The notes: a model not told the origin generated them from the letters alone. A DNA stretch of 32,000 nt from Candidatus Electrothrix sp. GW3-4 (GCF_037902255.1 NZ_CP147990.1:1800001-1832000); one strand, 5' to 3'. Counted from the stretch's first letter, positions 10,110 to 30,937 are shown. Translations and numbers: made by a program.

Positions 10110-10208
10110 GTGTTGCAAGATTGTTGTCAATATACGCAATCAAAAAGGATTCATGATACAATATTATTGTGCAAAAAAGCAGTGTTTAATTTACGCTGAG
10201 CTGTACTA

Positions 10209-11621: not shown

Positions 11622-11739
11622 TGGACCCCTATTCTTGGACAGCTATTTAAGGTAGATTTTTTTCTAAAAATGCTGAATGTATTTTGGTGCGCTTGGCACG
11701 AGTCCGAAATTCATACAGCCACTACCGGAGAATCTACGC

Positions 11740-12018
11740 ATGTCACGTAAAAGAAGAGTCCACTCAGCTGCATTTAAAGGAAAAGTTGCACTTGAAGCAC
11801 TGAAAGAACTAAAGCCGATTAATGTACTGGCCTCCCAGTATGAGATTCAGCCAAACCAGATTAGCACCTGGAAAAAGCAGCTAAAAGAAGGAGTAACCGA
11901 AATATTCAGCCGAAAACGCGGTAAAGCAAAAGATGATTCCCGCAAGGCTGAAAAACGCTTATACGAAGAAATCGGTCGTCTGAAAATGGAGCTGGACTGG
12001 CTTAAAAAAAAAGTCTGA
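11740..12018 (+). CDS. IS3-family transposase OrfA (HTH / leucine zipper)
   Basis: MSRKRRVHSAAFKGKVALEAL...NQISTWKKQLKEG...LYEEIGRLKMELDWLKKK is the canonical IS3 OrfA. Confidence 0.85.
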   Translation: MSRKRRVHSAAFKGKVALEALKELKPINVLASQYEIQPNQISTWKKQLKEGVTEIFSRKRGKAKDDSRKAEKRLYEEIGRLKMELDWLKKKV

Positions 12019-12847: not shown

Positions 12848-12953
12848 GATACAGTCAAACAAATATAGGAGGAAATCACCAGATAAGAAAGTTTGTTGTT
12901 AGCCCGAAATCTATCTTAAATTATGCTAAATTTTGTGTTGACTATGGGGTCCA

Positions 12954-14649
12954 CTTTACACCTCTTGCTCTTGTCAGAAGCTATCAGAATCCATATCAGC
13001 TAACTATTATAGTTGAGGACTCCGTAACCTATCCTGGTATTGGCGATAATGGTGAGATTAAGGGTAATAAAGTTGTTGATCCCGATAATGAAACGGTAGT
13101 CATCAAGGAACGTTTTTTTAAGGCTCACAATTTAGAAGAATGGTTCTATAAGGCGTATGATGAGAAATTAGGCATGAAGGCTCCTGCTGCTGGCTTGGCA
13201 GAAAGTCGAGGATTTGGTGGTAATTATCACTATGCCAAAACTGTACTGAAAACTCAAGTTCCTAGTGCAGGAAAATGGTTTTTTGATATACCGGAAGGCG
13301 GATATTATTCGGTTTATGTAAGTATACCTGCTGAAAATGCTACGACAAAAAATGCTAAGTATCAGATTTCTCACAATGGTCGAATAGATTACAAAACCGT
13401 GAATCAGGCCGAAATAGAAGGCCCTTTGGAGAACAGATGGGTACGCCTTGGTACGTATGATTTTGCTGAAGGGAATAACCACTATGTTAAACTCGCCAAT
13501 AATACTGGAGAGGTAGGGAAATATATCGCTTTTGATGCGATTAAGTTTGTCAAGGTATACAGTAATCTTCCTGTCGTGTATTCAGTATCGCCAGCAACTG
13601 CTATTAAAGATGAAGATAAAAAGACAATCTTTACTGTAACCGGTCAGAATTTGGATTTAGTGGAATTGGAATTTTCGCTTGCCAACTGCGAGGGTATTAC
13701 TGAGGTGACCAGCGGAAGTTCAACTTTGAAAGAATTCCAATGTAAGCCGACATCTACCGGGCAACACAGCGGAACGATAAAAGCAGGGGGAAGCATTCTG
13801 AAGGAATTCAGCGTTAAGGTGACAGACCCTCCTGTACCCACTTTGCAGAAAATTACTGTTCACCCCAAAAACGAGGAGGACGGTATTCTTTATGAAGGAG
13901 GACAGGCTTATTACGAGGCGGTGGGAACCTTTTCTGATGGAACTGAAAGTGTTATTACGGATCAGTGTACATGGTGGGCATCCCAGTATGCAACATCTCT
14001 TGGTAACGGACTTGTGGAGGCGTTGCTTGAAAGCGCTGATAACGAAGTGAGAATTACGGCAGTATATAGTGATGATACGATTTCTATTAGCGGAACGTAT
14101 GAAACTGTTGTGACAAAACGGCCTATAATAGTTCGTTCAATATCGCCTACGAGTGTCACCTTAGGCGTAACAACTGATTTCACTATCACAGGAGAGAACT
14201 TGCCTGTCGAAAAATCAATATCCTTACGGCTTGAAGGCTGCGATGAGGAGAGGATGGAGCCGTTAGACAGTGCACGCTCAACGTATATCCAGTTTCGTTG
14301 TACACCAAGGAGTGACGTGAACCCCGGAATGAAGACCGGAGAGTTAACGTATCGACCCTACGGAGATTTGGAGACCTTGGCGACGTTCAGTATAGAGTTT
14401 CTTGAAGCCCCAACTCCGCCAGATGATGAGCAGCTAGTTTTAAAAGAAGTCAGGGTTAAAGCGAATGAAGACCTCTATGCAGGCAAGACTGCCACGTATC
14501 AGGCAAAAGCATATTTCTCGAATAATGTAGGAAATGGGGATTCCCTTAAAGTTCCCGGAGAGAAGGTTCTTAAAATTGTAGAGATTACTGGTGAATGCGC
14601 TTGGCAGGCATATGGGACAAATTATGTTACCTCTCTTGGGGGCGGACTA
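12954..14649 (+). pseudogene. fragment 3 of the disrupted secreted protein: golvesin-C-terminal-like carbohydrate-binding domain plus IPT/Big_2 Ig-like repeats
   Basis: No usable start codon after the IS3 end; the ATG at 12838 in the ORF track lies inside the IS. GYYSVYVSIPAENATTKNAKYQISHNGR...RWVRLGTYDFAEGNNHYVKL is golvesin-like. AVGTFSDGTESVITDQCTWWAS...GLVEA and similar are Big_2. The frame is cut by IS630 copy 2 at 14650. Confidence 0.8.
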
Positions 14650-14671
14650 GTACAGCGCGGCGCAAATAACC

Positions 14672-15427
14672 CTATGCTTTTAACGGCAACCCATTAAATG
14701 TCCATTTGTATGGTTTTGCCATTGTCGCATTAAAGTAATCAATAAAGTCGAGCAATTTACTCCTGAGATCTTTTTTTGATGTAAAATTACCTCTTTTAAT
14801 GATTTTCTTAGTAAGAATACCAAACCAAATTTCTACTTGATTGAGCCATGAACAGTGTTTTGGGGTATAAACAAAGCGAATTGCATGGTCTTTCTTCCTG
14901 AGAAATTCGGCTCTGCTTTTCATTGATTTCAAAATGCCTTGTTTCCCTTTGACGCCTAAATTATCTTTTATTTCGCATAATTCACTGACCAACTTGACAA
15001 GTGATTCCGACTTATGAGTATTGAGCTGATCAGCCACAAAGACCCACTCCCGAGTTTCCGGATCGCTTAATATAAGGCTTCGAATATGTTCGCAAAAATC
15101 ATGTTCGTCCCGAGTGTCTCCTATGCTGGGAGAGACGACTTCACCGGTCACTACGTCAAAGTTTGCAATGAGCGAGAGTGTTCCGTGCCTGATGTACTCA
15201 AACTCAATCCGCTCCGGCTTTCCCGGCTCTATCTTTTTTGTCGGATTTTTCCTCTCAAGAGCCTGTATTCCGGTATTTTCATCAATACTGATGGTTCGCC
15301 TGCCGTTTATTACCGCCTTTCGGGGAGCTTCGTGGTATGTTTCACAGACATCTTTCACTTCTAAAACAAACAGTTCTTCATTGTCATGATTGGGATTGAG
15401 CCAATACCGACTATGATGAGGTTTCAC
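14672..15427 (-). CDS. IS630-family transposase orfB (DDE), copy 2
   Basis: The 251-aa product is identical to copy 1. Confidence 0.9.
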   Translation of the reverse strand: MKPHHSRYWLNPNHDNEELFVLEVKDVCETYHEAPRKAVINGRRTISIDENTGIQALERKNPTKKIEPGKPERIEFEYIRHGTLSLIANFDVVTGEVVSPSIGDTRDEHDFCEHIRSLILSDPETREWVFVADQLNTHKSESLVKLVSELCEIKDNLGVKGKQGILKSMKSRAEFLRKKDHAIRFVYTPKHCSWLNQVEIWFGILTKKIIKRGNFTSKKDLRSKLLDFIDYFNATMAKPYKWTFNGLPLKA

Positions 15428-15938
15428 ATCGGTTTCTTTTTAAAAATCGGCCCACTTGACGGTCCGAAATTCCAGAGGTTATCCCACGCTTATTGCATTC
15501 ATCCGCCAATTCCCTACTGCTCCATTGAGAAATTGGACGACCGCTTTCTTCGGGATGCTCCAGTGCAACTGCTAAAATCTGACAATATTGTTCTGAAGAA
15601 TAAGTTACTGGTGCTCCCGGACGCGGATTATCTTTTAAAACTTCTCGAATACTTTTTTCCAACTGATTGGCATTTTGGGGATCAGTCTCTATTTGCATTA
15701 AAGTATCTTGGTTGGCCAGCCACTTGTATCTCCAATGTTTAACCTTGTCGATACTGCAACTCATGACTTTTGCAATCTTTGAGTTCGGTTTTCCTTTCTC
15801 AATCTCCAATATTAAAGAAGCCCGACTTACCTCACGAAAATCAGCTGTTGATTGTCGAGCTATTTTTGACAAAATTTCTTTCTGTTGTTCGGAAACAGCA
15901 ATTGATGGCGATTTGGGTGTAGGCATTTTCGAATCCAT
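15411..15938 (-). CDS. IS630-family transposase orfA, copy 2
   Basis: Identical to copy 1 except for one residue (MQIETD vs MQIEAD). Confidence 0.8.
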   Translation of the reverse strand: MDSKMPTPKSPSIAVSEQQKEILSKIARQSTADFREVSRASLILEIEKGKPNSKIAKVMSCSIDKVKHWRYKWLANQDTLMQIETDPQNANQLEKSIREVLKDNPRPGAPVTYSSEQYCQILAVALEHPEESGRPISQWSSRELADECNKRGITSGISDRQVGRFLKRNRCETSS

Positions 15939-16037
15939 GTGTTGCAAGATTGTTGTCAATATACGCAATCAAAAAGGATTCATGATACAATATTATTGTG
16001 CAAAAAAGCAGTGTTTAATTTACGCTGAGCTGTACTA

Positions 16038-16148
16038 GTACAGGCCAAACCAGGAACTGAAGGGCAAAATTTCAAGGTGAAGTGTACCTACTACCATAGC
16101 TTCAGCGGATTATCATCGACCGGCACTTGGGAGGATACCATTAAGTAA
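16038..16148 (+). pseudogene. 3' fragment (last 36 codons) of the disrupted secreted protein
   Basis: After removing IS630 copy 2 plus one TA, the frame continues GGL-VQAKPGTEGQNFKVKCTYYHSFSGLSSTGTWEDTIK-stop (TAA at 16146-16148), followed directly by a strong terminator. Confidence 0.7.
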
Positions 16149-16165
16149 TCGTCACAGGTAATACT

Positions 16166-16213
16166 AAAAAGAAAAGCCCTGAGTCCGCCTTGGATTCAGG
16201 GCTTTTCTTTTTT
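16166..16213. terminator. strong bidirectional rho-independent terminator (hairpin family copy 1)
   Basis: AAAAA-GAAAAGCCCTGAGTCC-gcctt-GGATTCAGGGCTTTTC-TTTTTT: a 16-bp stem with one G-U pair, an A-run upstream and a T-run downstream. Confidence 0.75.
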
Positions 16214-16494
16214 GCTACCATTGCTCCCCTTTCCCCGCTTCTCCTCCGTCCCTGTTGACAACACATACCCCCGACTTTTTTTATTGGCTACCCGTATCCG
16301 ATCAGATACAATGAGACACATGAACACTATATTACGAACAAAAGTATTTGACGTATGACTCTCCAAGCTGAAAGATAATCGGGGAAAAGTGCGGATTGTC
16401 GAACGAATCCGTTGAATCTGCTTCAGATTTTGTTCCGCAACAGCACCTTGATGCATGTCTGCTTTCAGGTAAGCAATGATAGCTTGTAAATGCA

Positions 16495-16839
16495 TTACTC
16501 CAGGTAAGCGTCCACGAACTCTCTCGGCTTCAGAACCTCTATTCTCTTATATCCAGAGATGTTCAGTAAGTGTTTATCCCCACTAACAATCAGCTTGCTT
16601 CCGCTGGCAATTGCACACTCAATAAATTTGTTGTCATCAGGATCTTCGCAGATTGTCTCTTTGATGCCTTCTGTTCCGACAAATTCTCCAAAGATGGTAA
16701 AGAGTTCTAGAATCGGCTCAATGTTAACAGAAGGGTATTTCACCGACAACTCCTTTCCCACGCGTTGATATTCCTCCAGTATTTGTGGACTGGTTCCCAA
16801 GCTCTGCTTGGGAACAGACACCGTGAAGCTCCGCTTCAA
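16495..16839 (-). pseudogene. PIN_3-family toxin remnant lacking its N-terminal catalytic region
   Basis: The C-terminal ICEDPDDNKFIECAIASGSKLIVSGDKHLLNISGYKRIEVLKPREF is the PIN_3 signature. The expected N-terminal LDTNV segment is absent. The first ~17 codons are encoded by the palindromic repeat cluster at 16794-16889. Confidence 0.6.
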
Positions 16840-16889
16840 ATAAGAAGCAGAGCTTCAGGAATACGTACTCCCAAGCTGGAGCTTGGGAG
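16794..16889. repeat. cluster of four short perfect palindromes sharing an AAGC-n-GCTT core
   Basis: TTCCCAAGC-tct-GCTTGGGAA (16794-16814), GAAGC-tcc-GCTTC (16825-16837), GAAGC-aga-GCTTC (16844-16856), CTCCCAAGCT-gg-AGCTTGGGAG (16868-16889). Confidence 0.6.
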
Positions 16890-16920
16890 CGAGAATAAAT
16901 AAGATCAACCTCAAATATTC

Positions 16921-16960
16921 GCCCTGAGTCCCCCCGGATTCAGGGCTTTTCTTTTTTTTT
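16921..16960 (+). terminator. terminator-like hairpin (hairpin family copy 2)
   Basis: GCCCTGAGTCC-cccc-GGATTCAGGGC followed by TTTTCTTTTTTTTT. It has the same stem sequence as 16176-16202. Confidence 0.55.
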
Positions 16961-16984
16961 GCCCTTCTCTTCATCCTCCCGTAG

Positions 16985-17013
16985 TTGCAAAAAAGATCCC
17001 CATTCGTTATCAT
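16985..17013 (+). promoter_or_regulatory. candidate sigma70 promoter
   Basis: TTGCAA (16985-16990), a 17-nt spacer, then TATCAT (17008-17013), about 70 nt upstream of the ATG at 17084. Confidence 0.4.
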
Positions 17014-17083
17014 GCTTCCTGAAGGGAATCATACAGACCAGAAAACAGACAGTATATCAATTCAATGCAGAGGAGACGCCACA

Positions 17084-17482
17084 ATGAACCAGGAAGACGA
17101 CTTACCCACCGACGAAGAAGAGCTTATCGAGTTGGCCAAGAAGATTATTAAGGCAATGACCAACAACCCGAAATTTTCAAATTTGCCCGTCTCCGTATCA
17201 GAGATGCAGGAGTCGCTTGATAAGCTTATCAAGACAAGAGAGGCGGAAGCTGCTATCTGTGAAGAACAGAAGCGGGTCAAGAAGAAACTGCAGGCCGCCT
17301 GGGAGGATGTGTGTTCTGCGCAGCAGAGGATACGGGCATATAACAGGAAGCATGGTATACGCGACAACAGCACCAACTTGTTGGCATCCGGCATGCCCGG
17401 ACTGGCTAACCGTGTCTTCTCTCAGCTCCCTGACCAGGACGATACCTTGCAGATTCCAAAAAAGGACAAAAACACTGACTAA
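17084..17482 (+). CDS. hypothetical acidic/coiled-coil protein (132 aa)
   Basis: The ATG at 17084 is preceded by GGAGA at 7 nt; the TTG at 16985 in the ORF track coincides with the promoter box. No family recognised. Confidence 0.5.
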   Translation: MNQEDDLPTDEEELIELAKKIIKAMTNNPKFSNLPVSVSEMQESLDKLIKTREAEAAICEEQKRVKKKLQAAWEDVCSAQQRIRAYNRKHGIRDNSTNLLASGMPGLANRVFSQLPDQDDTLQIPKKDKNTD

Positions 17483-17554
17483 GGGGGCTCGACCAGAAAG
17501 CAGGAAAGGGAAGAAGGCAACCTGTTTCTCTTCCGACTGAGGTGCAGGCGCCTT

Positions 17555-20500
17555 TTATTCCCACTCGGCCAGATCCGCCCGTATCATCCTGATCTGCCGC
17601 ATGATGGTTTCACGCTGAATGCTGAACCAAATCATTCCCCCGGCAACCAGTCCACCCAATACCATCAAGAGAATTGCTTTGCTCAGGCGGTCTTGCGGAT
17701 AAAAATTGATCAGCTGGCCAGTAATATTTAAGACAAAGAAGATGACTCCGGTAAACAGAAAAGCACGCACCCGCAGGGCTATCCCCAAGGCGATGCCGAC
17801 GAGACTCAGGCCCAGCGCCAGGACGAATACATAAAATTCCGGGCGCAGAAATACATCCAAGGCCGTGCCAGCGTATAAGGCGGCTAAGGCGGTGAGGCGT
17901 ACCGCATTGAGGACACTGGGTTTCAGTTCCAGCATATGTAACTGGAGCATGACCAAGACCGTGATGGCCATGGGCACGGTATAGATCTGCACCAATCTAT
18001 ATCTATTATAGAGGCCGGGAAGCCAGAGATAGATGCCCATATTAAGAGCTAATAAGGCCAAATACACTGGCAGGCTTCGATGCTCATCACGCTGTATCAA
18101 CAAAAAAACAGCGGTAGCAGCAAAGAGGGTGCTGCCAGCGTAGACCGAGCCGACCTGCCAGGGCACAGTACCTAAGGCCATGAGGGGAAAGAGCAGGGTG
18201 ACCCGGTAAAGCGGGAGAGAGGTGGGCAGGGCACGTTGCAGGAGCAACACGACAAAGCCAGCACCCATCAAGGCAACCGTATCCCAGAGGGTAAAAGGTG
18301 CCAGGCCCGCCCAAAGCAAACGGACATAAGCTGCCAGGATCAGCATTACCGCAGTCAAACCATAGACCAGCAGGTTATGGCTTTTAATTTTGTGCATCCA
18401 CAGGCCGGTCAGGAGTATTCCGGCTGCAATTGCCGCCACATTATCCCAATACCCCAAGAGCTGCATTGCCCTGCCGCTGCCAGCAGCTGGCGCGATAATC
18501 TCTGTGAGAAAAAACAGGACATGGCCCAGCCATTCCAGGGCTGCCACCATCGACAAGACCGGCATCAACCAACGGAATATCCATAATGCCCTCCTTTCCT
18601 CCTGAGGGGGAGAACCTGCCTCTGCTGACAGCTGCCATCCCCTTTGCATTCCTACAACCAACCAGCTCAACAAGGCGAACTGGAGGGCATTCCAGGGCAA
18701 TAAGGCGGCCCATTGCGCCTGGGGCAGCCAGATCTTCCAGTGGAGATGCAGGGCGATGAGCAACAGGGCCACGCCTCCTGTCTGCCATTGCCGTGCTGTC
18801 TTTTGTGCTTCCGACAGTCCTAAGAGTCCTAAGACCACGCTTGACCCGCCCAACAGGACCAAGCTGAGCAGTTGTTCGCCCGCACTAAGATTCGGCATAA
18901 GGACCAGACCTAATAAGGCGATGCTGAATGTGACAGGTAAGCAATTTCGGGCGGCAGTACGCAGCTCTTCATGAAGATGAATTGAGGGTATAGAGAAATC
19001 CTTTGCCAAAAACAACAGGAGGAGAACACTCAGGCTGAAGAGAAGTGGCAGGCTGAGAGAGTTGATAAAAAGCAGGATCAACGCAGCCTGTCCGGCAACA
19101 ATCAGCATGTGCGCAGTCAAGGAGCGTGGACGCAGCCAGAAGGCGTGCTCAAAAGACAGGGCCAGGGCTGCCCCAAGGGCCATGACCCGCCCGTCCACCC
19201 CAACTGGCAGATGAACAAGGCCCGCTTCATGGAAAAATGCAGAGAGTATGAGGAGGGTAAGACCACACAAGCCGCAACTGAACAGCAGAACCGGCCAGAA
19301 AAAAAGAGGCAAGGTCTGTTTCAGACGATTTTTCAGGAAGACCGGGAGATGAAGCAGCAGGTTGAGCCAGATCAGCAGCCCAGATACATACGCTACTGAT
19401 GGAGAGCCGGGCAGCAGCTGCAGCAGCTCACTGACAACACTCCCGTTGCTCGTTGTGGGCAAAGGCAGGAGAGGAAACAGCTCCAAGAGGAGCAAGGCAC
19501 CGGTCCAGGTCAAAGAGAAGGAGGACAGCCAGGTGAGCCAGTGCCAGCCAGCTGTGCCTTGGAGCAGGAAGAGATGCAGGGTTGCAAGCGCCAGCAGGGG
19601 CCAGGAAAGATGGTGGTTTATTATAGTCCATGTCCCAACGCTGCCCAACAAGAGGATAAAACTTAATACTAAGGAAAAATCGGGAGAAATGGCCCATTGC
19701 GGCCAACGCAGATTCAAACGGGGCAAGGCATGGGTGCCTGCGGCCCAGAGGATGAAGGTCCAGCCTGTTACTGCCAGGGCAAGAGACCCCGGTTTTCCCG
19801 CCCCCAAAGAAAGCAGGTGCAAAGGCAGGAAGTTGCAAAAGCTGATAAAGGCAAGGGTCAAGAGCAGCGGCAGAGCAAGGCCTCTGAGCATCCGCGAGGT
19901 GTCTGATGAACGAGTCAGCAGCGGGATTTGGCCCAGGGCCAGCAAGACGAATATTGCGGGCAGCCAGATAGGTATTGCCTGTGGCCATCCTGTCCGCAGC
20001 AGGTGCAGGCTTTCTCCTAAGGCCCAGCAATAGCTCAGGAAGGGCACCGCCAGCAGGAGCCATGCCCCTATTCCCAACTCAGCTGTTCCCTCTTTTGCCT
20101 TCTCCAGGAAAACCAAAGCAATGCTCAAACCGCTCAATAGGACCAGGATGAGCAGACGTGCTTCCAGGGCAAGATCTGCAAACAGCAAGGTGGCCAAAGC
20201 GGCAGTATACAAAAACGGCAACCATTTCCAGATAACTTCTTTGCGTATTTTTGTGAGAGATACGGCATCTCCCTGCTCCTCTTCCTGCTCATCCTCTGCG
20301 CTGGACAGAGACAGGAAATAAATCGTTTGCAGCAGGGCGGCCCACAACACCAACAGCAGCGGCACCTGAACCATGGCTGCTGCTGTTTTCAAGAGCAGCA
20401 CACCGTTTGTCAGGGCAAGGAGAAGAAGATGGGCGAAGAAAAATCTCCATCGCACAGGGAAACGGGAAGAGAGAAGAAAGAGATGAAGAAACGAAAAGAC

Positions 20501-23500
20501 TTGCACTGCTGCCAGGATAATGAGTACTGTCTGCTCTTGCAGACTGGTGAGCCAGGTTACGCTGTTCAGGATGTCCATGTTGAGGCAAAGGGCAGAAACA
20601 ACCAGGGTCAACAGGACCAGGACAGCGCAGAGCAACAGGCAGGGCCAGAAGAAGAAGGCCCTTTGCAGGCGACGCTGCGTCACGGAAGGTGGTGCATCTC
20701 TGCCCGTTATTCGTAGGATGATGGGCATAATTTGGACGACCAGGTTGAGCCATACGGCTGCGCTGATCAGCAAGGGCAGATGCAAAGGACCTTGTCCTTG
20801 GGGAAGAAGAACAAGCAGCAGATCAAGACCGCTGACCGTAACAGCCAGGCCAGCCAGCCAGGGCAACCACGGCCAAGGTACAGTGCAGCAGATCAGCAGC
20901 AGATACCCTGTTGCCCCGAGCAATATGGGCCAAAAAGGCAGGCCCGAACCCCCTGAGGCGAGCAATCGTGCCAACAAGCTGGAGACCAAGGTGGTCAAGA
21001 CCAGAGCCAGCCCTGCAATGGGCCAGGGGGCAGGGGGGAGAAAACAGTGCGGAAACCGGGCATTCAATCTTGGCAGCAGGAAGACCCCTGTCCCCAGCAG
21101 GACGAGGCTCCAAACTATGAGGACATACGGAAAGAGATAGGTATTGCCGGTAAAGGAACTGGTCAGGGCCATGGTTAAAAAGACGACTATGCCGACACTA
21201 CCGACATTGCCGACATTGCGAAGACGAGTTCTATCCCCGATGGTGTGCAGAATGGATTGGCAAGAGAAGGCCAAGGCCATAAAGAACCAGGGCAAGCCGA
21301 GTTCGGTATTTCCCATTTTCAGACTTTGCCCAAACAACAAGGTATTGCAGAGCAATGCCCAGAGAAAGAGGATAATCGCGCTATGCTGCACAGGGCGACG
21401 GTATAGACTTTCATCAGAGGTATGAAGCAGGTAGGCTGTCAAGGAAAGTGCGGTTGCGAGCAGGGTCAGCATGGGAGCAGCATGCCGGACCTGGAGCAGG
21501 GTTGGCAAAGAAAGGGCAGCCAGCCAGGCATACAGGGTGCAGCCCATCAGAGCGGCGTAGCCGATGAACAGGTAGCTGTGCAAGCGCAGGGTATAACGTT
21601 GTCCGCTCTGCCAGAGAAAAAGCAGGACAAAGGCGAGGGCCATGAGCAAGGCGGCAAAGGGAAGGGGGATTTCCCGGAAAGGAGCGCCACCCTGAGCCGC
21701 TGTAATGACAGACCAACAAGCCACACCTGTACTGAAAAAAGCAAAGAACAAGGCGGTCCAATGGAGTGTCTGTTCACTGAGTCTACTGCCGCCGAGATCT
21801 CCGTAGCCGCCCTGCCATCCCAGAAGGTTGACAAGTCGAAGAGCAAATGCTGTGCGCAGGAGCAGGCTGCATCGCCAGAGCAACAGGGTGAAGCCCATAA
21901 CCAGACAGGGTTGCCAGAGGGAGGAAACCGGGATGAGGACCAGCAGGGCCTTGATCAGCAGGATGGCGACCAGGGGCAAGAGGCAGATCAAGCTGCCCAT
22001 TTGGAGAGGAGGGGATGCCTTTGTTTGCCCAGCTGCCAACAGGCTGGTCAGCGCGCCCAGCAAGGCGAGCACTGCCCAGGAAAAACCGGGCTGGGGCAGG
22101 AAAATGCCAGGGATACTCTTGCAAAGGGCTATCAACCACAAGAGATAGAAAAACTGGCGCAAAGGAGGCCGAACCAGCTGGGTGCGGGTAGGGAAACGGT
22201 TGCTGGCCACCGGGAAGAGCCCGAGTAACAGAACTGAGGGTCTTTCTTTCGTTTTTTTGGTTGGTTTTGACTCTGCTGCATCAGCTAAATCAGCTGGCAA
22301 CGGGGACGGGGCCGTGAGTTTTTCTGTCAGGGCGGTGCGAAGGAATACGCGCCGTTGCAGATACCACTGTACTCCCCAGAGGACGAGGGCCGCAAGCAGG
22401 ACTCCCTTGCCACTGGAGACCGGGATGTAGTGTGTTTTCAGCAGGTAAAATCCGGCGCCGCCAAGGATCATTGCCCCATAGAATAAGGCTTGGTTACGCA
22501 GGCCGAGACTGAGCCAGAGGAGGCCCCCGCCTGCCGCGATCAACAGGCAGGAGATCAGAGGATCCGCAATAAGGGCGGTAAGGTCAAGGCCGGAGTGCGT
22601 CAGCCAACTCCCTGTGATGACAAGAAGGCCTAGTGCAATACTCAAGAGGGCCGAGTTGAATAATGCCTCTTGCCCCTCTGTAATCTTTTTGTGTAAGCGG
22701 CGGAGCCCCCAGCCTGTCCACAGATAGGCCAAGGCAATGAGTCCGCTGCTGAATTGTTCCGGCCAACTCCCCATACGCACAGTCAGCACAGTCAGCACAG
22801 GCGTGTAGGCCAAGGTCAGGGAGAGCAGCCCTGTCAGCATATAATAGCCTTTGGCAGACCCTGGAGCAGAAGCAGAGGTACTGCTGTCAGCGTGCAGGAG
22901 ACCTAGCGGGGTGAGGCCCAGGATCTGCAAGACCAGGGCGGCCGCTGCCAGCGGGGTGAGCATGGGGATGATTCCTTGCGCAGGAAAGGGGCTGTGCAGC
23001 AGACTCCAGAGAACCAACACAGGGATCAATGCCAGCATGGTTTTCTGGACCACCAGGGCCAATGCGCTTGCATTTCGTCGCTGGGCCAGACGATGTACCC
23101 CTATGATGGCGGAGAAGCCGGGCAGGGCGAGCAGGAAATGCCAATGACCGGGAAAAAACTGTAAGATGGATTGGGCGTATAAGGCAGTAAAGCAGGCCAG
23201 GAGGAGATAGAGCGGCGCCAGGGTGAGATATTTCCAGACCATGCCGCCATAGAGCAAGACGCCAATGACCAGGCTCAGGAATAAGGGCAGGGTGAAGAGA
23301 TACTCTCCCCCTGTTCCTCCGGCCAGGGAAACCAGCAGGGCCAACACGGACAGGGCATAGATAACAAAGGTAAAACGGCTGAGCGGGGCATAGTTCCGTA
23401 CCCAGTCCTTGAATTGAATATCCACGGAAAAGAGCAAAGCGCACAGGATCATGAGAAATGGCCCGGCATAGCCTTTGGGCAGGTCCATGCCCGCACCCAG

Positions 23501-25015
23501 GGTCAGGTGAATAAAAGACACTACTGCCGCATAGATCAGGGTCCCTGCTGCATAATAGGCGACTTTGCGTTTATCCATAAAAATGGAGCGGAGCCAGTGG
23601 CGGGTGAAACGCTGTAAGGCATAGCCCAACAGGGCCAGCAGGATGAGGTGCAGGGCTGCCAGCCAAAGCCAGTGCAGCGAGGGATTGAGCAAGGGGACAA
23701 AGAATTGCAGGGCTGCCAGCCCCATAAATAACAAGGGATGTTCCTTGCTCAGGCTCCGGTCGATGAGCCCGGAGGCCAGACGGACAGCCACAGCAAAGCT
23801 GCTCAGGAGAACAAGGGCAACTATTACCGCAAGAGCGAGGAACATCCCATTGGAGCCAGCAGCTGTGATCAGGCGTACACAGGCTGTCAGATTTAAGGGG
23901 ACCAGCAAGACCCCCAAGGCCAACAGGATACCGCTGGAGGTGATCAGTTCCGGCCGTTTTCGACGCAAGAGATATCCTCCCCCCAACAGGATGCCTGTGT
24001 ATCCTACAAGGGAGATAACCACGGCAAGTGCCTTCCAATAGCCTGTGGTTGCGGCCAGCAGATAAATGGAACCGGAGATACCACAGATCCCGGCTATGAA
24101 CCAGCCGATGTTCTGGAGGAAGAAAGGCACCATGATCTGGTACAAAAAGGCGCGGGTCGGTCGACGACGGTATATCTGTTTGACCCAGCTGGACATAAAG
24201 GCTTCCAGGGCGCTGATCCGCTCCGGCTTGGCCCTGTCTTTCTGTTCTTTGGCCGGGGCCTGCTGTTGCGCTTCTGGGATTGTTTCTTCGCGCAGGGTGC
24301 TTCTTGTCGATATGGGTTGTGCAACAGGGGAGGAGGGAATTCTTTCCGGAGCGGGCGTTTTTGCTTGAGGAGTTTTTTGGAAGCGCGTTTGCTTCTCGAT
24401 AGTGGGCCTGACAGTGGCGGTGCCTGGCAAGGACCGGGGGCTGTCCGAGGGGGAACGCTGGGCAGCAGGGGCCTTCTTTGCAAGAGGCGGGACGGCCCGT
24501 GTTGGCATCTGCACCAGAGTTTTTGCGGCAACAGGTGCAGTTTTTTTGTCTGTTGGTTCGGGGGCAGCGTTTTGTTGCCGCCCTGCGTCCTTACTGGCGG
24601 TGCTTTGCTCGGAGAATTCTTCGGAGAAGAGCTGCCAAGGGGGCGGGTCAAGGGGTTGGCCCATGTGCTGTTCCAGCAGGGACCAGGCTGCCTCCAACTG
24701 CTTGCGCCGTGCCTCTCGATTGTACCGCTGCCGATTGCAGAGATGAGTAAAGCGCTTGATCAGCTGGCGATTCAGGCGCTCATAGAGGGAGGAATCAAGC
24801 TGTTCCGCCTCACGGAGTTGGGCCAGTTTCAGGTGCAGCAGGGCCAAATCAGCGAGTTCTTCTTCCGCAGCCGTTTTGGTGTGCTCTTTAACGGCCTTTG
24901 CTTCCCTGATCCTGATTAACAGGAACAGCATGCCTAGAAGCAGGATGGTGCCGATAAGAGAAAATTGCGTAAGAAAAATAATTGCAAAAATGGCTATCAG
25001 TATCCAGCTCTTCAC
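17555..25015 (-). CDS. giant polytopic membrane protein (2486 aa): N-terminal TM anchor, coiled-coil, Pro/Ala/Gln-rich linker, then about 2200 aa of near-continuous transmembrane helices
   Basis: A single uninterrupted 7461-nt ORF. The GTG start has GAGGGG 6-7 nt upstream. Residues 1-35 are hydrophobic, 40-125 are heptad-like (LADLALLHLKLAQLREAEQL...), 130-265 are low complexity, and the rest is dominated by L/A/G/W/F-rich segments. The N-terminal layout is reminiscent of DUF2339-type proteins (recollection, not searched). Confidence 0.9.
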   Translation of the reverse strand: MKSWILIAIFAIIFLTQFSLIGTILLLGMLFLLIRIREAKAVKEHTKTAAEEELADLALLHLKLAQLREAEQLDSSLYERLNRQLIKRFTHLCNRQRYNREARRKQLEAAWSLLEQHMGQPLDPPPWQLFSEEFSEQSTASKDAGRQQNAAPEPTDKKTAPVAAKTLVQMPTRAVPPLAKKAPAAQRSPSDSPRSLPGTATVRPTIEKQTRFQKTPQAKTPAPERIPSSPVAQPISTRSTLREETIPEAQQQAPAKEQKDRAKPERISALEAFMSSWVKQIYRRRPTRAFLYQIMVPFFLQNIGWFIAGICGISGSIYLLAATTGYWKALAVVISLVGYTGILLGGGYLLRRKRPELITSSGILLALGVLLVPLNLTACVRLITAAGSNGMFLALAVIVALVLLSSFAVAVRLASGLIDRSLSKEHPLLFMGLAALQFFVPLLNPSLHWLWLAALHLILLALLGYALQRFTRHWLRSIFMDKRKVAYYAAGTLIYAAVVSFIHLTLGAGMDLPKGYAGPFLMILCALLFSVDIQFKDWVRNYAPLSRFTFVIYALSVLALLVSLAGGTGGEYLFTLPLFLSLVIGVLLYGGMVWKYLTLAPLYLLLACFTALYAQSILQFFPGHWHFLLALPGFSAIIGVHRLAQRRNASALALVVQKTMLALIPVLVLWSLLHSPFPAQGIIPMLTPLAAAALVLQILGLTPLGLLHADSSTSASAPGSAKGYYMLTGLLSLTLAYTPVLTVLTVRMGSWPEQFSSGLIALAYLWTGWGLRRLHKKITEGQEALFNSALLSIALGLLVITGSWLTHSGLDLTALIADPLISCLLIAAGGGLLWLSLGLRNQALFYGAMILGGAGFYLLKTHYIPVSSGKGVLLAALVLWGVQWYLQRRVFLRTALTEKLTAPSPLPADLADAAESKPTKKTKERPSVLLLGLFPVASNRFPTRTQLVRPPLRQFFYLLWLIALCKSIPGIFLPQPGFSWAVLALLGALTSLLAAGQTKASPPLQMGSLICLLPLVAILLIKALLVLIPVSSLWQPCLVMGFTLLLWRCSLLLRTAFALRLVNLLGWQGGYGDLGGSRLSEQTLHWTALFFAFFSTGVACWSVITAAQGGAPFREIPLPFAALLMALAFVLLFLWQSGQRYTLRLHSYLFIGYAALMGCTLYAWLAALSLPTLLQVRHAAPMLTLLATALSLTAYLLHTSDESLYRRPVQHSAIILFLWALLCNTLLFGQSLKMGNTELGLPWFFMALAFSCQSILHTIGDRTRLRNVGNVGSVGIVVFLTMALTSSFTGNTYLFPYVLIVWSLVLLGTGVFLLPRLNARFPHCFLPPAPWPIAGLALVLTTLVSSLLARLLASGGSGLPFWPILLGATGYLLLICCTVPWPWLPWLAGLAVTVSGLDLLLVLLPQGQGPLHLPLLISAAVWLNLVVQIMPIILRITGRDAPPSVTQRRLQRAFFFWPCLLLCAVLVLLTLVVSALCLNMDILNSVTWLTSLQEQTVLIILAAVQVFSFLHLFLLSSRFPVRWRFFFAHLLLLALTNGVLLLKTAAAMVQVPLLLVLWAALLQTIYFLSLSSAEDEQEEEQGDAVSLTKIRKEVIWKWLPFLYTAALATLLFADLALEARLLILVLLSGLSIALVFLEKAKEGTAELGIGAWLLLAVPFLSYCWALGESLHLLRTGWPQAIPIWLPAIFVLLALGQIPLLTRSSDTSRMLRGLALPLLLTLAFISFCNFLPLHLLSLGAGKPGSLALAVTGWTFILWAAGTHALPRLNLRWPQWAISPDFSLVLSFILLLGSVGTWTIINHHLSWPLLALATLHLFLLQGTAGWHWLTWLSSFSLTWTGALLLLELFPLLPLPTTSNGSVVSELLQLLPGSPSVAYVSGLLIWLNLLLHLPVFLKNRLKQTLPLFFWPVLLFSCGLCGLTLLILSAFFHEAGLVHLPVGVDGRVMALGAALALSFEHAFWLRPRSLTAHMLIVAGQAALILLFINSLSLPLLFSLSVLLLLFLAKDFSIPSIHLHEELRTAARNCLPVTFSIALLGLVLMPNLSAGEQLLSLVLLGGSSVVLGLLGLSEAQKTARQWQTGGVALLLIALHLHWKIWLPQAQWAALLPWNALQFALLSWLVVGMQRGWQLSAEAGSPPQEERRALWIFRWLMPVLSMVAALEWLGHVLFFLTEIIAPAAGSGRAMQLLGYWDNVAAIAAGILLTGLWMHKIKSHNLLVYGLTAVMLILAAYVRLLWAGLAPFTLWDTVALMGAGFVVLLLQRALPTSLPLYRVTLLFPLMALGTVPWQVGSVYAGSTLFAATAVFLLIQRDEHRSLPVYLALLALNMGIYLWLPGLYNRYRLVQIYTVPMAITVLVMLQLHMLELKPSVLNAVRLTALAALYAGTALDVFLRPEFYVFVLALGLSLVGIALGIALRVRAFLFTGVIFFVLNITGQLINFYPQDRLSKAILLMVLGGLVAGGMIWFSIQRETIMRQIRMIRADLAEWE

Positions 25016-25247
25016 CGCGTTCCCCTCTGGTTCAAGGATGAAGCCTTGTATACGTCAGCTCCCGAGTCCCCCTCCCCCTCTGGGGAGGGATAATAAGACA
25101 TGAAAGGTGATCCGGCGACTTCAAAGAGTTGTCGGTACTTTCATATAAAATTCCTTCGCCCCTTGGGCTGGGGTAAAAAAATACTTTACAGTTGCGTTGC
25201 AAACAGCGGGGGATCAGGCCCGGAGCTCTTCGTAAGAAAGTAGATGT

Positions 25248-25928
25248 TTACCCAGCGTTTTTCTGCATCTTCATCTTCAGGTCGTTCAGTTCTGTTTCCA
25301 CATCAGCATCTGCCTCCAACTGCAAAAACTCTTTTTCCAAGGGCGACATATCGTTATTCAGCTCGTCCATGGCCTCGGTACGTGCCTCCATTTCCTCCAC
25401 CTTATCTTCCATGCGATCAAAGCGGGCCTGGGCATCCAGACCGGTACGGAAGGTATCCATGGTGCTGTCCATCTGCTGCCGGGCCTCTGTCGCCCGTTGG
25501 CGGGCCAACAAGGTGCTGCGCTTACGCTTGGTTTCTTCCAACTTATTTTCCAGCTGGAGTAGCTGCGCCTTCAGGCGATCACTGGTTGCTTTGGCTGATG
25601 CCCAGGCAGGTTCCAGATTGGTGATGATCTGATCTATTTCTTTTTTTCGGGCCAGCGCAGAACGTGCCAGGTCCTCCTTATCCGCCTGTACGGCTGTTTC
25701 TGCCTTGCTCAACCATTCCTGAGAGTGATTACGATGCTTTTCCAGTTCGCGAAACAACTGCTTTTCACTGGCTATGGCATTTATAACGCCTTCTTTGGCC
25801 TGGCGAATATTATCCTCCATCTCGCGGATGATCTGTTTGATTATCCGTTCAGGATCTTCCAGCCGATCAATCAGGTCGTTCAGATTGGCGTTGATGATGT
25901 CGCTGACCCGCTTAAATATACTGCTCAT
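25248..25928 (-). CDS. pspA: phage shock protein A (PspA/IM30/Vipp1 family, ESCRT-III-like)
   Basis: 226 aa. MSSIFKRVSDIINANLNDLIDRLEDPERIIKQIIREMEDNIRQAKEGV...ALARKKE...LEETKRKRSTLLARQRATEARQQM is the canonical PspA. AGGAGGGG lies 4 nt upstream of the ATG. Confidence 0.95.
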   Translation of the reverse strand: MSSIFKRVSDIINANLNDLIDRLEDPERIIKQIIREMEDNIRQAKEGVINAIASEKQLFRELEKHRNHSQEWLSKAETAVQADKEDLARSALARKKEIDQIITNLEPAWASAKATSDRLKAQLLQLENKLEETKRKRSTLLARQRATEARQQMDSTMDTFRTGLDAQARFDRMEDKVEEMEARTEAMDELNNDMSPLEKEFLQLEADADVETELNDLKMKMQKNAG

Positions 25929-25972: not shown

Positions 25973-26014
25973 CATTCTTCTCGCAGAATGTAGCATATAT
26001 CAAATCCGTCGTAA
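25973..26014 (-). promoter_or_regulatory. candidate pspA promoter with an overlapping inverted-repeat operator
   Basis: On the minus strand, TTACGA (26014-26009), a 16-nt spacer, then TACATT (25992-25987). The palindrome CATTCT-n6-AGAATG (25973-25990) overlaps the -10/TSS. A third AGAATGCGT half-site lies at 26031-26039. Confidence 0.4.
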
Positions 26015-26202
26015 CTCTTTATTTTAAGATAGAATGCGTCCTTTGCCTACAAAAACAAACTGCGGCCTTGCGCTTTTCTTCTTGTTCCTTTATCTGAAAA
26101 CTGTTACCGCTAACAAAATTATTACAGCTTGAGTTAACCTGTTCAGCTGATCGGATCGAGAGAGGAAGTATCGCATGGCCCAGGATATAATCAGGAGAAA
26201 AA

Positions 26203-26404: not shown

Positions 26405-28263
26405 GGCATGCTTCATATCCACCCAAAAGTAGTTGACACTTTTTTTTAATACAATGCGGCGAAGACGCACCAATACATATCACCGCTGTCACTTTCTCAG
26501 AGTTGATTAACGGCTTCTTAACTGAAGATCAGGAACCGTTGATGTATAATTTCAGGCCGCTGCCGAGAAAAATAGAGGGTCTTTTTCCTCAATCAGGTCA
26601 AATAGCAGCTCAGTCCAGTCTTTTTCCTGCTTTTTACCCGTCAAAATCTCCATCGGTGTTTTCTTGACTCGTTTTCCCGCACGGTATCGCCTGTTATTAT
26701 GATAAAATGCGATCAGATTCAAGGTGTTCTGGTTCACCTGTCCCCGTGAGGTATTCAGATACGGACGAATGACGGAGTTGATACATTCGACCATGGCCGA
26801 ACTCTGTACAATTGTGTCCAACTCGTTGTATACACGATCTTTGATAATTTCAAAATCTTCCTGAAGATACCCTACGGCGAATTCAAGATGCCTCTGTTCT
26901 CTGTCCGCGCATCTCTTACGGCGATCCGCCTTTTTTGCTTTGATCACTGCTTTATGATGCTGCCATGCCGAACAGAGCGACGACAGCGCGTTATGATTGA
27001 TCGGCAATTTTTCGAGTTCTTCCCTGACCTCGAGGGCTACAACGAAATAATTCAGAAGATTCGGCAGGATATTTTTTATTCCGTCGATTGCTTTGTTGAT
27101 TTTTTCATTGCCGAGAGTTTCAATCATCTCAAGAGCTGCCTGAATGTTGCCTTCCGCCTGCTGACGATTCCGCAGTTGGCCGTCGCAGCAGAACGGGTTC
27201 AATTCATTGATAATACATCGGTATAGATAAAAAAAGTTATCATACAGCGCCACGGCCTTCCGCGCTTCGCTGCGTGCTTTTTCATAGAGTTCGGTTCGTT
27301 TGCGGATAACCGCCTTCGTTCGTGCAGAAGCAATTTTTCCTTCGCGGTTATACTCCTCCGTAATAGCTTTATAAGCCGATTTTTCTAGTTGTTCCAACCG
27401 ACTTCCGAGACGATATGCAACAGCGTGAAAAGTGTCTGGCTGCCTCATGATGACACCTGAAAAAAGTTCATCGTGAGCCGCGCACAGCCCGGATCCTTCA
27501 TCGGTGACGAGATAAATCGCCTCAATTCCATTATTTTCAAGGCAGATCCAATGCTTTTTCCATTCTTCAGCACGTCGTTTTTCGGCGAGTTCTATCTTTA
27601 AAATCGCGGAGCTGATCGGATCGACAGTGATTAGAATAGGTACACCGCCGGAAAAGATTTCATCGCTCAGAAAGACAACCCGCAAATCATTGTCTTCAAG
27701 CCTCAGCTCAGGGGGAACAAGCGAGCCTATATGATTTAAATATGTGCTAACAGTACCTTGAGATGAGAAGCGTAGGCCGATGCGGTTCATTATCGCCACA
27801 ATAGATCCGATACCGCATTTCCCCTCAAGTCGTAATGAAGCTATCATTTCAACAGCTTCTCTTTTGTTTTCAGTATCGGCAGGTTGAACGGGCGGTCCGA
27901 GCGCAAGTTCAACAATTTCCTCGAAAACCGCCAAGGTGTCATAGATAAACGTCCTGGAAACATTGTAATATTTCGATAATGCGGTTACCGTGCCCCATAG
28001 ACCGAAAATTTTAGCGCAATACGCTTCATAAACGATTTGTAGTCGATCGAAAGTTGCTAACTCAGGGCGACGAAGAAATTTATTTCCGAAAATATTGCTC
28101 GCGTTATCGGGGACGGGCACTTGAGGTACGAGAGAAAACATAAGGCGATGTTGGTTCAATTTGGCTGAGGATTATTTGCCATTATAATAGCTGAACCAAG
28201 CAGCTTGTCGCAACTTTATGAATAACTTTCTGTACAAGTGTCAACCCGGATATGAAGGATGCC
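26405..28263 (-). mobile_element. insertion sequence (1859 bp), family not assigned, with an 8-bp target duplication
   Basis: Terminal inverted repeats GGCATGCTTCATATCC / GGCATCCTTCATATCC (15/16), plus an internal GTTGACACTT in both ends. Direct repeats GAAAAATC at 26397-26404 and 28264-28271. One 535-aa transposase ORF. Confidence 0.85.
26552..28159 (-). CDS. transposase (DDE-type, family unassigned)
   Basis: 535 aa. N-terminal HTH-like YYNVSRTFIYDTL, candidate acidic residues in ILITVDPIS and YLVTDEGSG, and a C-terminal MVECINSVIRPYL...LIAFYHNNRRY motif typical of DDE transposases. It is bounded by the IRs above. Confidence 0.8.
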   Translation of the reverse strand: MNQHRLMFSLVPQVPVPDNASNIFGNKFLRRPELATFDRLQIVYEAYCAKIFGLWGTVTALSKYYNVSRTFIYDTLAVFEEIVELALGPPVQPADTENKREAVEMIASLRLEGKCGIGSIVAIMNRIGLRFSSQGTVSTYLNHIGSLVPPELRLEDNDLRVVFLSDEIFSGGVPILITVDPISSAILKIELAEKRRAEEWKKHWICLENNGIEAIYLVTDEGSGLCAAHDELFSGVIMRQPDTFHAVAYRLGSRLEQLEKSAYKAITEEYNREGKIASARTKAVIRKRTELYEKARSEARKAVALYDNFFYLYRCIINELNPFCCDGQLRNRQQAEGNIQAALEMIETLGNEKINKAIDGIKNILPNLLNYFVVALEVREELEKLPINHNALSSLCSAWQHHKAVIKAKKADRRKRCADREQRHLEFAVGYLQEDFEIIKDRVYNELDTIVQSSAMVECINSVIRPYLNTSRGQVNQNTLNLIAFYHNNRRYRAGKRVKKTPMEILTGKKQEKDWTELLFDLIEEKDPLFFSAAA

Positions 28264-29668: not shown

Positions 29669-29868
29669 ATGTTTCGTTTCTCCTTTCTTGTTCGGTCGCT
29701 CGGTTGCTTTTCACTCTCGAGTCTACTGGCTCTTTTCTTTCTGCTATCCGCAGATCCAGCTTCTGCCTGTATGCCGACCATCAAATATATGGCGGATACT
29801 ATGGCCCCGCCCAACCCTGTTGCCGGTACCTCTGCCACAGTGACCTACACCGTTTTTAACGAATCAGG
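29669..29868 (+). pseudogene. N-terminal fragment of an exported (possibly lipo-) protein, truncated at the IS66 remnant
   Basis: MFRFSFLVRSLGCFSLSSLLALFFLLSADPASAC (signal peptide with a lipobox-like ASAC), then PNPVAGTSATVTYTVFN. Beyond about 29868 the listed ORF is antisense to IS66 transposase sequence. Confidence 0.3.
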
Positions 29869-30937
29869 CTGCGATGCAAACGGATATAAACTGGCGTTTC
29901 ATTCTGTTCTGCCAGCAACCCCTGAATGTCTGGCCGAGCACATAATCAAGTACTTTTTGGCTGCGAAGGCCAATGATGTAAAAGGTGACTTTCAGCGAGG
30001 TAAAGACCCATAACCATCGTTTTTCGGCCCACTCCTTCCAGGATGTCTCATCCACGAACAGGATCAGTGATTCACGCACCTCCTCAAGAAACTCATCGCT
30101 AAGGGGAGAAACGGCGCGGCCAGCTTCATGGATACATTGATTGATCGTGCCGATGCCCAAATCCAATCGCAGCCAATCTTGCAGAAATTCCCGGATGCGG
30201 CGGCGAGAAAGGCGCATGCGCTTGGAGAGGCACACGATCAGAGCGGTCAATTTTGGGCCGACCATGTGCCATTGGCTTATTTCAACCCCCCAGTCTTCGT
30301 TTTTTTCGAGACGATGGGGCATAAGCCGATTGACATGACCACAGCCGCCGCACGTCGTGTCTCCGTAGATATGCTTGGTGTTGATCACCTCTATTCCCGG
30401 GCCGGTGGCATCGCCCACCTCAATATCAACGACATAATGACCGGTGCGAGCGATGAAGTCGCATGTTTCGTCCAGCTCAAGGTTACAAGCCAAGCAGGTG
30501 TCTGCTTTGTGAATGATGGTGTCGTGTACGGGAAGTTTTTGCGTTCGACCATGCCCGGTGGTGCCGGGTTGCTTGCCGGGTTTGTTGCCCTTGGGGCGAT
30601 CATCAATATTTTTGGGGGAATCCTGCTGGTCGGACTTGTCCGCATCTTCATCATGCTCGACGGACTCCTCGTCAGAATCGTCGAGTTCTATGTGCGTGGC
30701 TTCGACTTGCTCTTCATCCGGTTCCTCCTCGTCGGCTTGAGCGTCGGCATCAAACCGGGCCCAGGGGAAATTTGAGCTGGGAGGCATGGAGCTGTTTTCG
30801 GAATTTTGACCCAGCCGTTCGTGAAGTTCTTTGAGGTCATCAAGTGCGAGCAGGCACAGCTCCTTTGCACTCTTACCGGGCAAGGAGTCAATAAACTGCT
30901 TATCTATTTTTAGCAACTCTTCTCTGGATAGATGCAT
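29864..30937 (-). pseudogene. IS66-family transposase, C-terminally truncated (357 aa)
   Basis: NSENSSMPPSS, an acidic linker, Cys clusters (CLACN...CGGCGH), GPKLTALIVCLS...RLSRRRIREFL and LFVDETSWKE...WLWVFTS are IS66 TnpC hallmarks. The second and third catalytic acidic regions are missing. Confidence 0.8.

Follow-up and report, generated by a model that had tools for sequence, protein, structure and literature searches.

A gene pair of pspA and a giant polytopic membrane protein in Candidatus Electrothrix: a candidate novel PspA partner system

A stretch of 32,000 nucleotides from the cable bacterium Candidatus Electrothrix sp. GW3-4 (GCF_037902255.1, NZ_CP147990.1:1800001-1832000; hereafter the window, with positions counted from its first letter) contains a pspA gene followed on the same strand, after a gap of 232 nt, by a single open reading frame (ORF) for a giant membrane protein of 2486 residues (hereafter the giant). 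This arrangement, put forward in an original prediction made from the sequence alone, was borne out by the ORF list and by the match of the first product to the PspA/IM30 family, and the linkage of the two genes recurs in 101 of 116 informative loci. Together they probably form a conserved two-gene module that represents a new Psp envelope-maintenance architecture, with the giant as the membrane-integral platform or sensor of PspA. The proposal of a candidate novel PspA partner system is supported by genomics, the partnership being a putative one. Of the three outcomes that were said to speak against it (no conserved linkage, a terminator and promoter in the gap, an artefact), none came about.

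Conservation of the gene pair

The GTG start of the giant gene is credible, since a Shine-Dalgarno-like motif (GAGGGG) lies 7-8 nt 5' of it and the N-termini of orthologues align with that of the window protein (MSWILIAIF...). Full-length orthologues have 2473-2501 residues and share 58-70% identity, one of them being encoded on a closed 5.09-Mb chromosome; the orthologue in the closed genome of Ca. Electrothrix scaldis has 2473 residues and is 70% identical. The existence of these full-length orthologues means that the ORF is not a product of misassembly or frameshift, a caveat of the original prediction that can be excluded.

The 226-residue product of the first gene is identical in sequence to WP_339138200.1 and matches PF04012 (PspA/IM30) over profile positions 1-218 of 220, with 165.7 bits against a cut-off of 33.9 and an E-value of 1.5e-48. 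It does not reach the cut-offs of TIGR02977 (171.9 bits, cut-off 242.95) and NF007974 (143.1 bits against 336), the equivalogs of the enterobacterial PspA, or of the LiaH equivalog. Judged by these profile scores, the protein is a member of the PspA family and not the enterobacterial equivalog. Its family membership suggests that it adopts the fold of ESCRT-III (endosomal sorting complexes required for transport, complex III) and forms polymers.

The linkage was followed in 80 loci taken from contigs of one genome per species, whose six-frame ORFs were searched with the window PspA; 75 of them were informative upstream of the giant. In 62 of these 75, pspA lies directly upstream on the same strand, and an independent scan of metagenome contigs gave the same arrangement in 39 of 41 informative loci. 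Between the stop codon of pspA and the first start codon that occurs in the downstream frame lie a median of 46 nt, and in 51 of the 62 loci no more than 100 nt. Among the carriers are gammaproteobacteria (Beggiatoaceae, Thiotrichales, Methylococcales with Crenothrix, Competibacteraceae, Chromatiaceae, Ectothiorhodospiraceae and Halieaceae), Desulfobacterota (Electrothrix, Desulfobacterales and Syntrophobacteraceae), Binatia and Entotheonellaceae. Clustering of the flanking ORFs of at least 90 aa, and then of at least 50 aa, in 101-151 loci turned up no further neighbour that is conserved; the real clusters next in size span at most 17 loci and correspond to synteny within the Competibacteraceae. 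Pairwise distances of PspA and of the C-terminal block of the giant are correlated (r = 0.94), which fits inheritance of the two genes as a unit.

The species loci in which pspA is missing are scattered over at least six positions of the similarity tree of the C-terminal block and are nested among linked relatives, which argues that the linkage is ancestral and was lost several times. The genes found upstream of the giant in these 13 loci encode TauE, acetate kinase, a type II secretion system F protein, GspH, a prephenate-dehydrogenase-like protein and, in one case, a transposase fragment; an alternative partner was rejected, all of these being unrelated and, the transposase fragment apart, housekeeping genes. 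In one locus without pspA, from a Thiomargarita metagenome-assembled genome (MAG; L058), a YhgA-like transposase fragment (9374-9703) abuts the giant, whose profile match begins at position 189, which suggests that the linkage was destroyed there by an insertion.

In several relatives, the more distant of which were found by profile search, the giant is divided between two genes. The loci L083 (2753-8115) and L084 (867-6538) have the order pspA, a gene of 725 or 794 aa and a gene of 826 or 861 aa, the former covering profile positions 186-863 (the anchor, the linker and the block with the QNIGWF motif, see below) and the latter positions 866-1989; the break at positions ~860-866 corresponds to the hydrophilic loop 901-943 of the window giant. 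The same two-gene form is found downstream of pspA in L105, L115, L119 and L143, and L098 and L114 are split alike, with contigs that end short of the pspA position. A second break point occurs in L085 (3940-13074), where pspA is followed by a 428-aa gene, encoding a Zn ribbon, a long helical region and the first transmembrane (TM) helices (profile positions 74-343), and then by a 2357-aa gene (353-1984). In every split locus whose contig reaches the pspA position, pspA stands first. When the break point differs and the gene order stays the same, the parts are classically taken to act together, and the split versions amount to a ready-made natural series for domain dissection. Chance adjacency of the two genes, or an artefact of assembly or frameshift, would have nothing beyond its prior probability and the frameshifts seen in some MAG copies to speak for it; set against orthologues of the same length and architecture in closed genomes and the recurrence of the linkage, its probability is negligible.

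A consensus scan of the gap between pspA and the giant gene found no promoter-like or terminator-like site, in agreement with the original prediction as to the terminator, and the gap does hold GC-rich hairpins. One of them (Table 1), found by RNAalifold on three Electrothrix loci and by single-sequence folds too, has nine pairs, three of these being maintained by compensatory changes in both arms of the stem. Since a U-rich stretch precedes the stem and none follows it, the hairpin does not qualify as a canonical terminator; it could act in mRNA processing or stability and in this way set the ratio of PspA to the giant. The corresponding gap in E. scaldis measures ~200 nt. We infer that the two genes are co-transcribed. 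Upstream of pspA, three sigma-70-like matches are weak (Table 1), and the best matches to a sigma-54 promoter (TGGCAC-N5-TTGC) in the upstream regions of 58 loci equal those of shuffled controls, on which ground a sigma-54/PspF-type promoter was rejected.

Architecture and predicted fold of the giant protein

The giant begins with the TM anchor that had been foreseen from the sequence, here placed by hydropathy, followed by a charged helical region and by a linker that has the expected Pro/Ala/Gln/Thr-rich character but measures ~160 aa instead of the ~130 aa first estimated; its sequence and length differ between homologues. From about residue 290 to residue 2467, hydrophobic helices follow one another almost continuously, as both the hydropathy scan, with 86 overlapping peaks, and the DSSP assignments on the predicted models indicate, and the nearly unbroken TM series over ~2200 aa thus stands. 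Leucine makes up 21.8% of all residues, and the loops between helices are mostly 1-8 residues long. The one acidic island of the original description was located in the first tandem module (Table 1). Five columns of the N-terminal block are invariant (Q300, N301, I302, W304 and F305), and the invariant polar residues, which include R419 and D531 besides the C-terminal set given in Table 1, lie at or near helix ends.

Among 5.8 billion proteins searched, 72 homologues came to light, with lengths of 1459-3667 aa and E-values down to 0. They belong to Electrothrix, Thiomargarita, Competibacteraceae, Methylococcales, Syntrophobacteraceae, Desulforhabdus and others; all are labelled hypothetical, and every one lacks a Pfam domain. 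Three features define the family, and the window giant and the 72 homologues have all of them: QNIGWF in the N-terminal TM block, LPRxNxRWPxWAIxP in the repeat module, and RADLAxWE at the end of the C-terminal block. When the last 396 residues were used as a profile, 1256 cluster representatives (50% identity) matched at E <= 1e-3, and 698 at E <= 1e-10, among 1.84 billion; ten shorter relatives found with this profile again have no Pfam domain. The whole giant matched no recognised family in Pfam, NCBIfam, PADLOC or PHROGs (0 families in the last two), Pfam being additionally scanned with the protein in five pieces at E <= 10, and no PDB sequence matched the family profile at E <= 0.1.

AlphaFold2 (AF2) models built with a 68-sequence alignment have a mean predicted local distance difference test (pLDDT) score of 86.7 and a predicted template-modelling score (pTM) of 0.69 for residues 1701-2486, with ~29 helices according to DSSP, and a pLDDT of 87.1 and a pTM of 0.66 for residues 281-1240, with ~38 helices. 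Extrapolated from these two models, the whole protein would carry about 55-65 helices. Foldseek found no structural neighbour of either model in the PDB at E <= 1e-3. Its top rows are soluble TPR/HEAT solenoids, alpha-solenoids and designed toroids, all non-significant with template-modelling scores (TM-scores) of at most 0.26, and they are no evidence of homology. By these searches and models, the giant is a member of a new, unannotated family with a confidently predicted but unmatched all-helical, polytopic fold. No signature of an enzyme, a transporter or a defence system shows in its sequence or fold, in line with the earlier remark that enzymatic and transport motifs could not be made out.

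It is therefore very improbable that the giant has merely diverged from a known family of transporters, channels or DUF proteins, such as DUF2339 or TMBIM/Bax1-I, and that its adjacency to pspA reflects a shared regulon only. Conserved charged residues in or near the membrane would suit such an origin, as would the match of residues 1089-1259 to Bax1-I (PF01027), the sole one in Pfam; at 19.5-20.5 bits it lies far under the gathering cut-off of 34.1 and was rejected as compositional. The likeness to DUF2339 (PF10101) suggested in the original prediction, which lies in a helical region at the N-terminus, a linker rich in Pro and a large number of TM helices, finds no support in sequence, because PF10101 was matched neither by the whole giant (E <= 0.01) nor by its five pieces (E <= 10), nor by the ten shorter relatives; a remote relationship is possible. 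The lack of a sequence match in the PDB and of a structural neighbour for either model also speaks against a known family.

The giant contains a tandem repeat that BLASTP self-comparison did not find and that was revealed by profile-profile comparison (hhalign) of sub-blocks of the family alignment. Residues 1240-1480 align to 1700-1900 with a probability of 99.8% (E 2e-30), and residues 1480-1700 to 1900-2100 with a probability of 97% (E 8e-11). The first copy of this module is largely missing from most of the 24 other aligned members, only 85 of its 460 columns being populated (alignment A1), and the 3667-aa homologue has four copies of the signature motif. The size range of 1700-3667 aa is thus explained by a varying copy number of the ~450-aa TM module.

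Windowed conservation peaks in the N-terminal block, with 0.80-0.81 at its QNIGWF and AYYAAG motifs. The last TM helix scores 0.69 and the C-terminal tail helix 0.72, among the highest values in the protein, and the tail helix is kept in the split and short forms; the conservation of the N-terminal helical region (residues 35-125) is low (0.35). In 51 of 56 family members, lysine plus arginine (K+R) are more numerous in the 15 residues after the first TM helix than before it. This charge bias, read by the positive-inside rule, and the Zn-ribbon N-terminus of the L085 relative, a domain type that is normally cytoplasmic, place the N-terminal helical region in the cytoplasm. In family members, the Arg-rich C-terminal tail has a median of four K+R within its last 22 residues; in the AF2 model, the tail helix runs on from the last helix before it. 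Both ends of the giant, the N-terminal helical region with the linker and the C-terminal tail, are predicted from their sequences to face the cytoplasm.

Table 1 Features of the pspA-giant module and of its surroundings in the window
Feature	Position (nt)	Strand	Remarks
pspA	25248..25928	(-)	Opens the module; ATG start, 226 aa; stop codon counted in the span
pspA-giant intergenic gap	25016..25247	(-)	232 nt
Giant polytopic membrane protein gene	17555..25015	(-)	Second in the module; GTG start, 2486 aa
N-terminal TM anchor, residues 4-34	24914..25006	(-)	Hydropathy peak 2.4; predicted N-out/C-in
Cytoplasmic helical, coiled-coil-like charged region (predicted), residues 35-125	24641..24913	(-)	Family motif LxLLRLELxxL...AWxLL...GxPPW (alignment A1 consensus)
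Pro/Ala/Gln/Thr-rich low-complexity linker, residues 126-285	24161..24640	(-)	~160 aa; from translation
N-terminal TM block, conserved, residues 286-900	22316..24160	(-)	Invariant QNIGWF motif and AYYAAG motif
Hydrophilic loop, residues 901-943	22187..22315	(-)	6 K/R and 4 D/E; matches the fission point of two-gene relatives
Middle TM block, residues 944-1240	21296..22186	(-)	Start of the C-terminal gene in split forms (hmmsearch, L083 and L084)
Tandem module copy 1, residues 1241-1700	19916..21295	(-)	~450 aa of TM helices (hhalign); holds the acidic island
Acidic island SSAEDEQEEEQGD, residues 1570-1582	20270-20308	(-)	From translation
Tandem module copy 2, residues 1701-2100	18716..19915	(-)	Motif LPRxNxRWPxWAIxP
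C-terminal TM block, conserved, residues 2101-2466	17618..18715	(-)	Invariant polar R2231, D2244, H2359, R2372, D2386, R2416, Q2433
C-terminal amphipathic tail helix, residues 2467-2486	17558..17617	(-)	Consensus REAILQRIRIxRADLAxWE; predicted cytoplasmic; candidate docking site
GC-rich hairpin UCCCUCCCC-AGAG-GGGGAGGGG	25069..25090	(-)	RNAalifold, three Electrothrix loci; single-sequence folds
Three weak sigma-70-like promoter matches upstream of pspA	25974..26145	(-)	Consensus scan 9/12, no more than shuffles give
c-di-GMP-I riboswitch aptamer (RF01051)	8415-8493	(+)	54.8 bits against a gathering score of 35
Insertion sequence (IS), two near-identical direct copies	8818-~10140, 14647-~15970	(-)	DDE_3 transposase (251 aa) and helix-turn-helix (HTH) protein (185 aa)
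DUF4382/M23 peptidase gene	10209-11621	(+)	
rve integrase gene	12155-12847		
Golvesin_C/TIG protein gene	12838-14697		
PIN toxin gene	16495-16839		

Role of the giant protein beside PspA

In the reading that we favour, PspA would be the soluble ESCRT-III-like effector and the giant its dedicated membrane-integral partner, a nearly pure TM array with very short loops. Over a large area, the array would report or organise the packing, tension or curvature of the bilayer, and the giant would recruit or nucleate the PspA polymer there through its conserved cytoplasmic elements, as PspB/PspC, LiaI and PspM do, the C-terminal tail helix being the best candidate for docking. Under this scheme we infer physical contact between the two proteins, a docking element, a sensing role and induction by stress.

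The arrangement has a parallel in the enterobacterial pspFABCDE operon, where the same-strand genes that come immediately after pspA likewise encode membrane proteins, PspB and PspC. PspB and PspC are thought to sense membrane stress and to bring PspA to the membrane; they are small, with one TM helix each, whereas the giant has 2486 residues and, by extrapolation, ~55-65 TM helices. The Pfam domains of PspB, PspC and PspF are absent from the gene calls of five loci (L001, L002 and L083-L085) and from the scanned ORFs of the window. The module further differs from the enterobacterial operon in having neither a sigma-54 promoter signal nor another conserved neighbour, and in a PspA that scores under the TIGR02977 cut-off. 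Lineage-specific anchors encoded beside a PspA homologue, LiaI/LiaF in Bacillus (liaIH) and PspM/Rv2743c in Mycobacterium, recruit that homologue to the membrane, as passages of PMC7619361 and PMC11237479 describe. The giant is 10-30 times larger than these anchors and has no LiaI-LiaF-TM, DUF2157 or other Pfam match, and, unlike in the Lia and PspM systems, no two-component or ClgR-type regulator is conserved near it.

Several points weigh against a dedicated partnership. The giant stands without an adjacent pspA in 13 of the 75 species genomes and in 2 of the 41 metagenome contigs, and adjacency is therefore not obligatory; shared vertical descent alone may account for the correlation of the distances; and the gap of 200-232 nt in Electrothrix, with its stable hairpins, could uncouple the expression of the two genes. 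The N-terminal helical region, besides being poorly conserved, is short in the split forms L083 and L084, which makes it weaker as a universal docking site. What is shown is the order of the genes, their conservation and the predicted structure.

A different relation, which we consider rather unlikely, would be that the giant has a function of its own and is not a receptor, PspA only protecting the bilayer from leakage of protons or from defects in packing that the insertion and housing of the giant's ~55-65 helices would cause. The conserved operon evidence applies equally to this relation, and the giant has almost no extramembrane mass and a weakly conserved N-terminal region. PspA, moreover, responds by induction when membrane proteins are mislocalised or overproduced, and it limits the leak of protons, as reviewed in PMC7619361. 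Such a guarding role leaves the function of the giant unsaid, and the strongly conserved cytoplasmic C-terminal helix, together with the interfacial polar residues, suggests a specific binding surface. We also know of no other very large membrane protein that carries a private pspA.

It seems distinctly unlikely that the pair instead serves to make or maintain special membranes or membrane curvature, as in vacuoles, in intracytoplasmic membranes or in the membranes of cell-cell junctions, with a Vipp1-like PspA and the giant as a curved TM belt or scaffold. The idea draws on the carriers, among which Thiomargarita, Thioploca, Parabeggiatoa, Crenothrix, Methylococcales, Chromatiaceae and the cable bacteria are filamentous or possess vacuoles or elaborate internal membranes; on the variable copy number of the repeat module; and on the best, non-significant Foldseek rows, whose alpha-solenoids and toroids hint at a stacked-hairpin array over a compact bundle. 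With TM-scores of at most 0.26 and E-values above 1e-3, however, these rows give no real support, and the pair is also carried by Competibacteraceae, Desulforhabdus, Syntrophobacteraceae, Binatia and Entotheonellaceae, in which we know of no such special membranes. Vipp1/IM30 of cyanobacteria and plastids is comparable in that it, too, is ESCRT-III-like, belongs to the PspA family and serves a specialised task at a membrane; it carries a C-terminal extension, whereas the window PspA is canonical in length and paired with a giant membrane protein. Vipp1 is, in addition, often monocistronic, according to a passage of PMC7619361.

A bolder reading is put forward tentatively, and we regard it as rather unlikely: the giant would be a "transmembrane solenoid", a helical-repeat array of duplicable ~450-aa modules that forms an extended or curved belt in the bilayer and that, with PspA polymers, delimits, senses or shapes a membrane domain. 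In eukaryotes, the extended TM array of Piezo senses and bends the bilayer, and the giant resembles it as a polytopic protein of ~2500 aa made of repeated TM modules. The likeness is one of functional analogy only, since the two are not homologous and Foldseek gave no match at E <= 1e-3, and the giant shows no evident pore or cap domain. If true, the pair would be a bacterial counterpart of Piezo-like curvature or tension arrays coupled to an ESCRT-III-like machine, and a categorically new membrane-architecture system, beyond another PspA anchor.

Genomic surroundings and wider significance

In E. scaldis (L001), the genes for a caspase-like NTPase, PspA, the giant, GrpE and DnaK follow one another in this order. 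In the window, GrpE (5307-5945) and DnaK (3208-5142) are encoded 11.6 kb beyond the giant gene, and the interval 5946-17554 has a low G+C content and mobile-element content (Table 1). Given this composition and the gene order in E. scaldis, the interval looks like an insertion of mobile DNA into an ancestral giant-grpE junction. The adjacency of the giant gene to grpE and dnaK is not conserved elsewhere, and the two genes were left out of the module. The two IS copies agree for 112 nt before they first differ, and together they could make up a composite transposon around 10.2-14.6 kb. One copy lies between the cyclic di-GMP (c-di-GMP) riboswitch and the M23 peptidase gene at 10209, the next plus-strand gene of substantial size, and its insertion may therefore have cut the riboswitch off from the target it once had. 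Between grpE and the riboswitch, a non-coding stretch holds four overlapping copies of a tandem repeat with a 67-nt reference unit (6282-6476) and a direct repeat pair of 130 nt (7373-7502 and 8133-8262), 94% identical and 760 nt apart.

On the pspA side, the E. scaldis gene just upstream of the module (L001, 3844-7062) is a Peptidase_C14 caspase-like gene fused to an NTPase and tetratricopeptide (TPR) repeats. A caspase-like gene fused to an FGE-sulfatase occupies that position in Thiomargarita nelsonii (L002, 4775-6844), where pspA is missing. As these genomes are rich in metacaspases, such neighbours may be a coincidence. The matching position of the window holds a 535-aa ORF (26552-28159, minus strand) with only a weak match to an ISL3 transposase, and a fragment of an IS66-family transposase lies on the same side (29864-30937, minus strand). 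Mobile elements abound around the locus.

The legend of Fig. 3 in PMC11237479 names as the predominant contexts of PspA the PspF/B/C, PspAA/AB, ClgR-PspM/N, band-7/flotillin, Toastrack/Lia, spermine-synthase-type and cyanobacterial ones, and a giant multi-TM protein is absent from that legend. Term searches within the surveys PMC11237479 and PMC9239133 and the 2025 review PMC7619361 met no mention of a giant multi-TM partner. A literature search on PspA in combination with cable bacteria, Electrothrix, giant sulfur bacteria and giant or polytopic partners found no description, most subscription journals lying outside its coverage. The giant was likely overlooked by the surveys because Pfam holds no model for it. 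These results support the view that the pair is a previously undescribed, widespread architecture of the Psp system.

The pair bears on how PspA, Vipp1 and other bacterial ESCRT-III-like proteins reach particular membrane sites, a question for which the known partners are small and confined to particular lineages. The giant is a widespread partner candidate, its C-terminal domain being matched by the 1256 cluster representatives, and is annotated in none of the four curated libraries. The pair is concrete and testable, being present in cultured strains (Thiocystis violacea DSM 207, T. minor DSM 178 and Desulforhabdus sp. TSK), and its series of fusions and fissions is useful for mapping which parts work together. 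Its relevance extends to the envelope biology of cable bacteria, giant sulfur bacteria, methanotrophs and glycogen-accumulating organisms.

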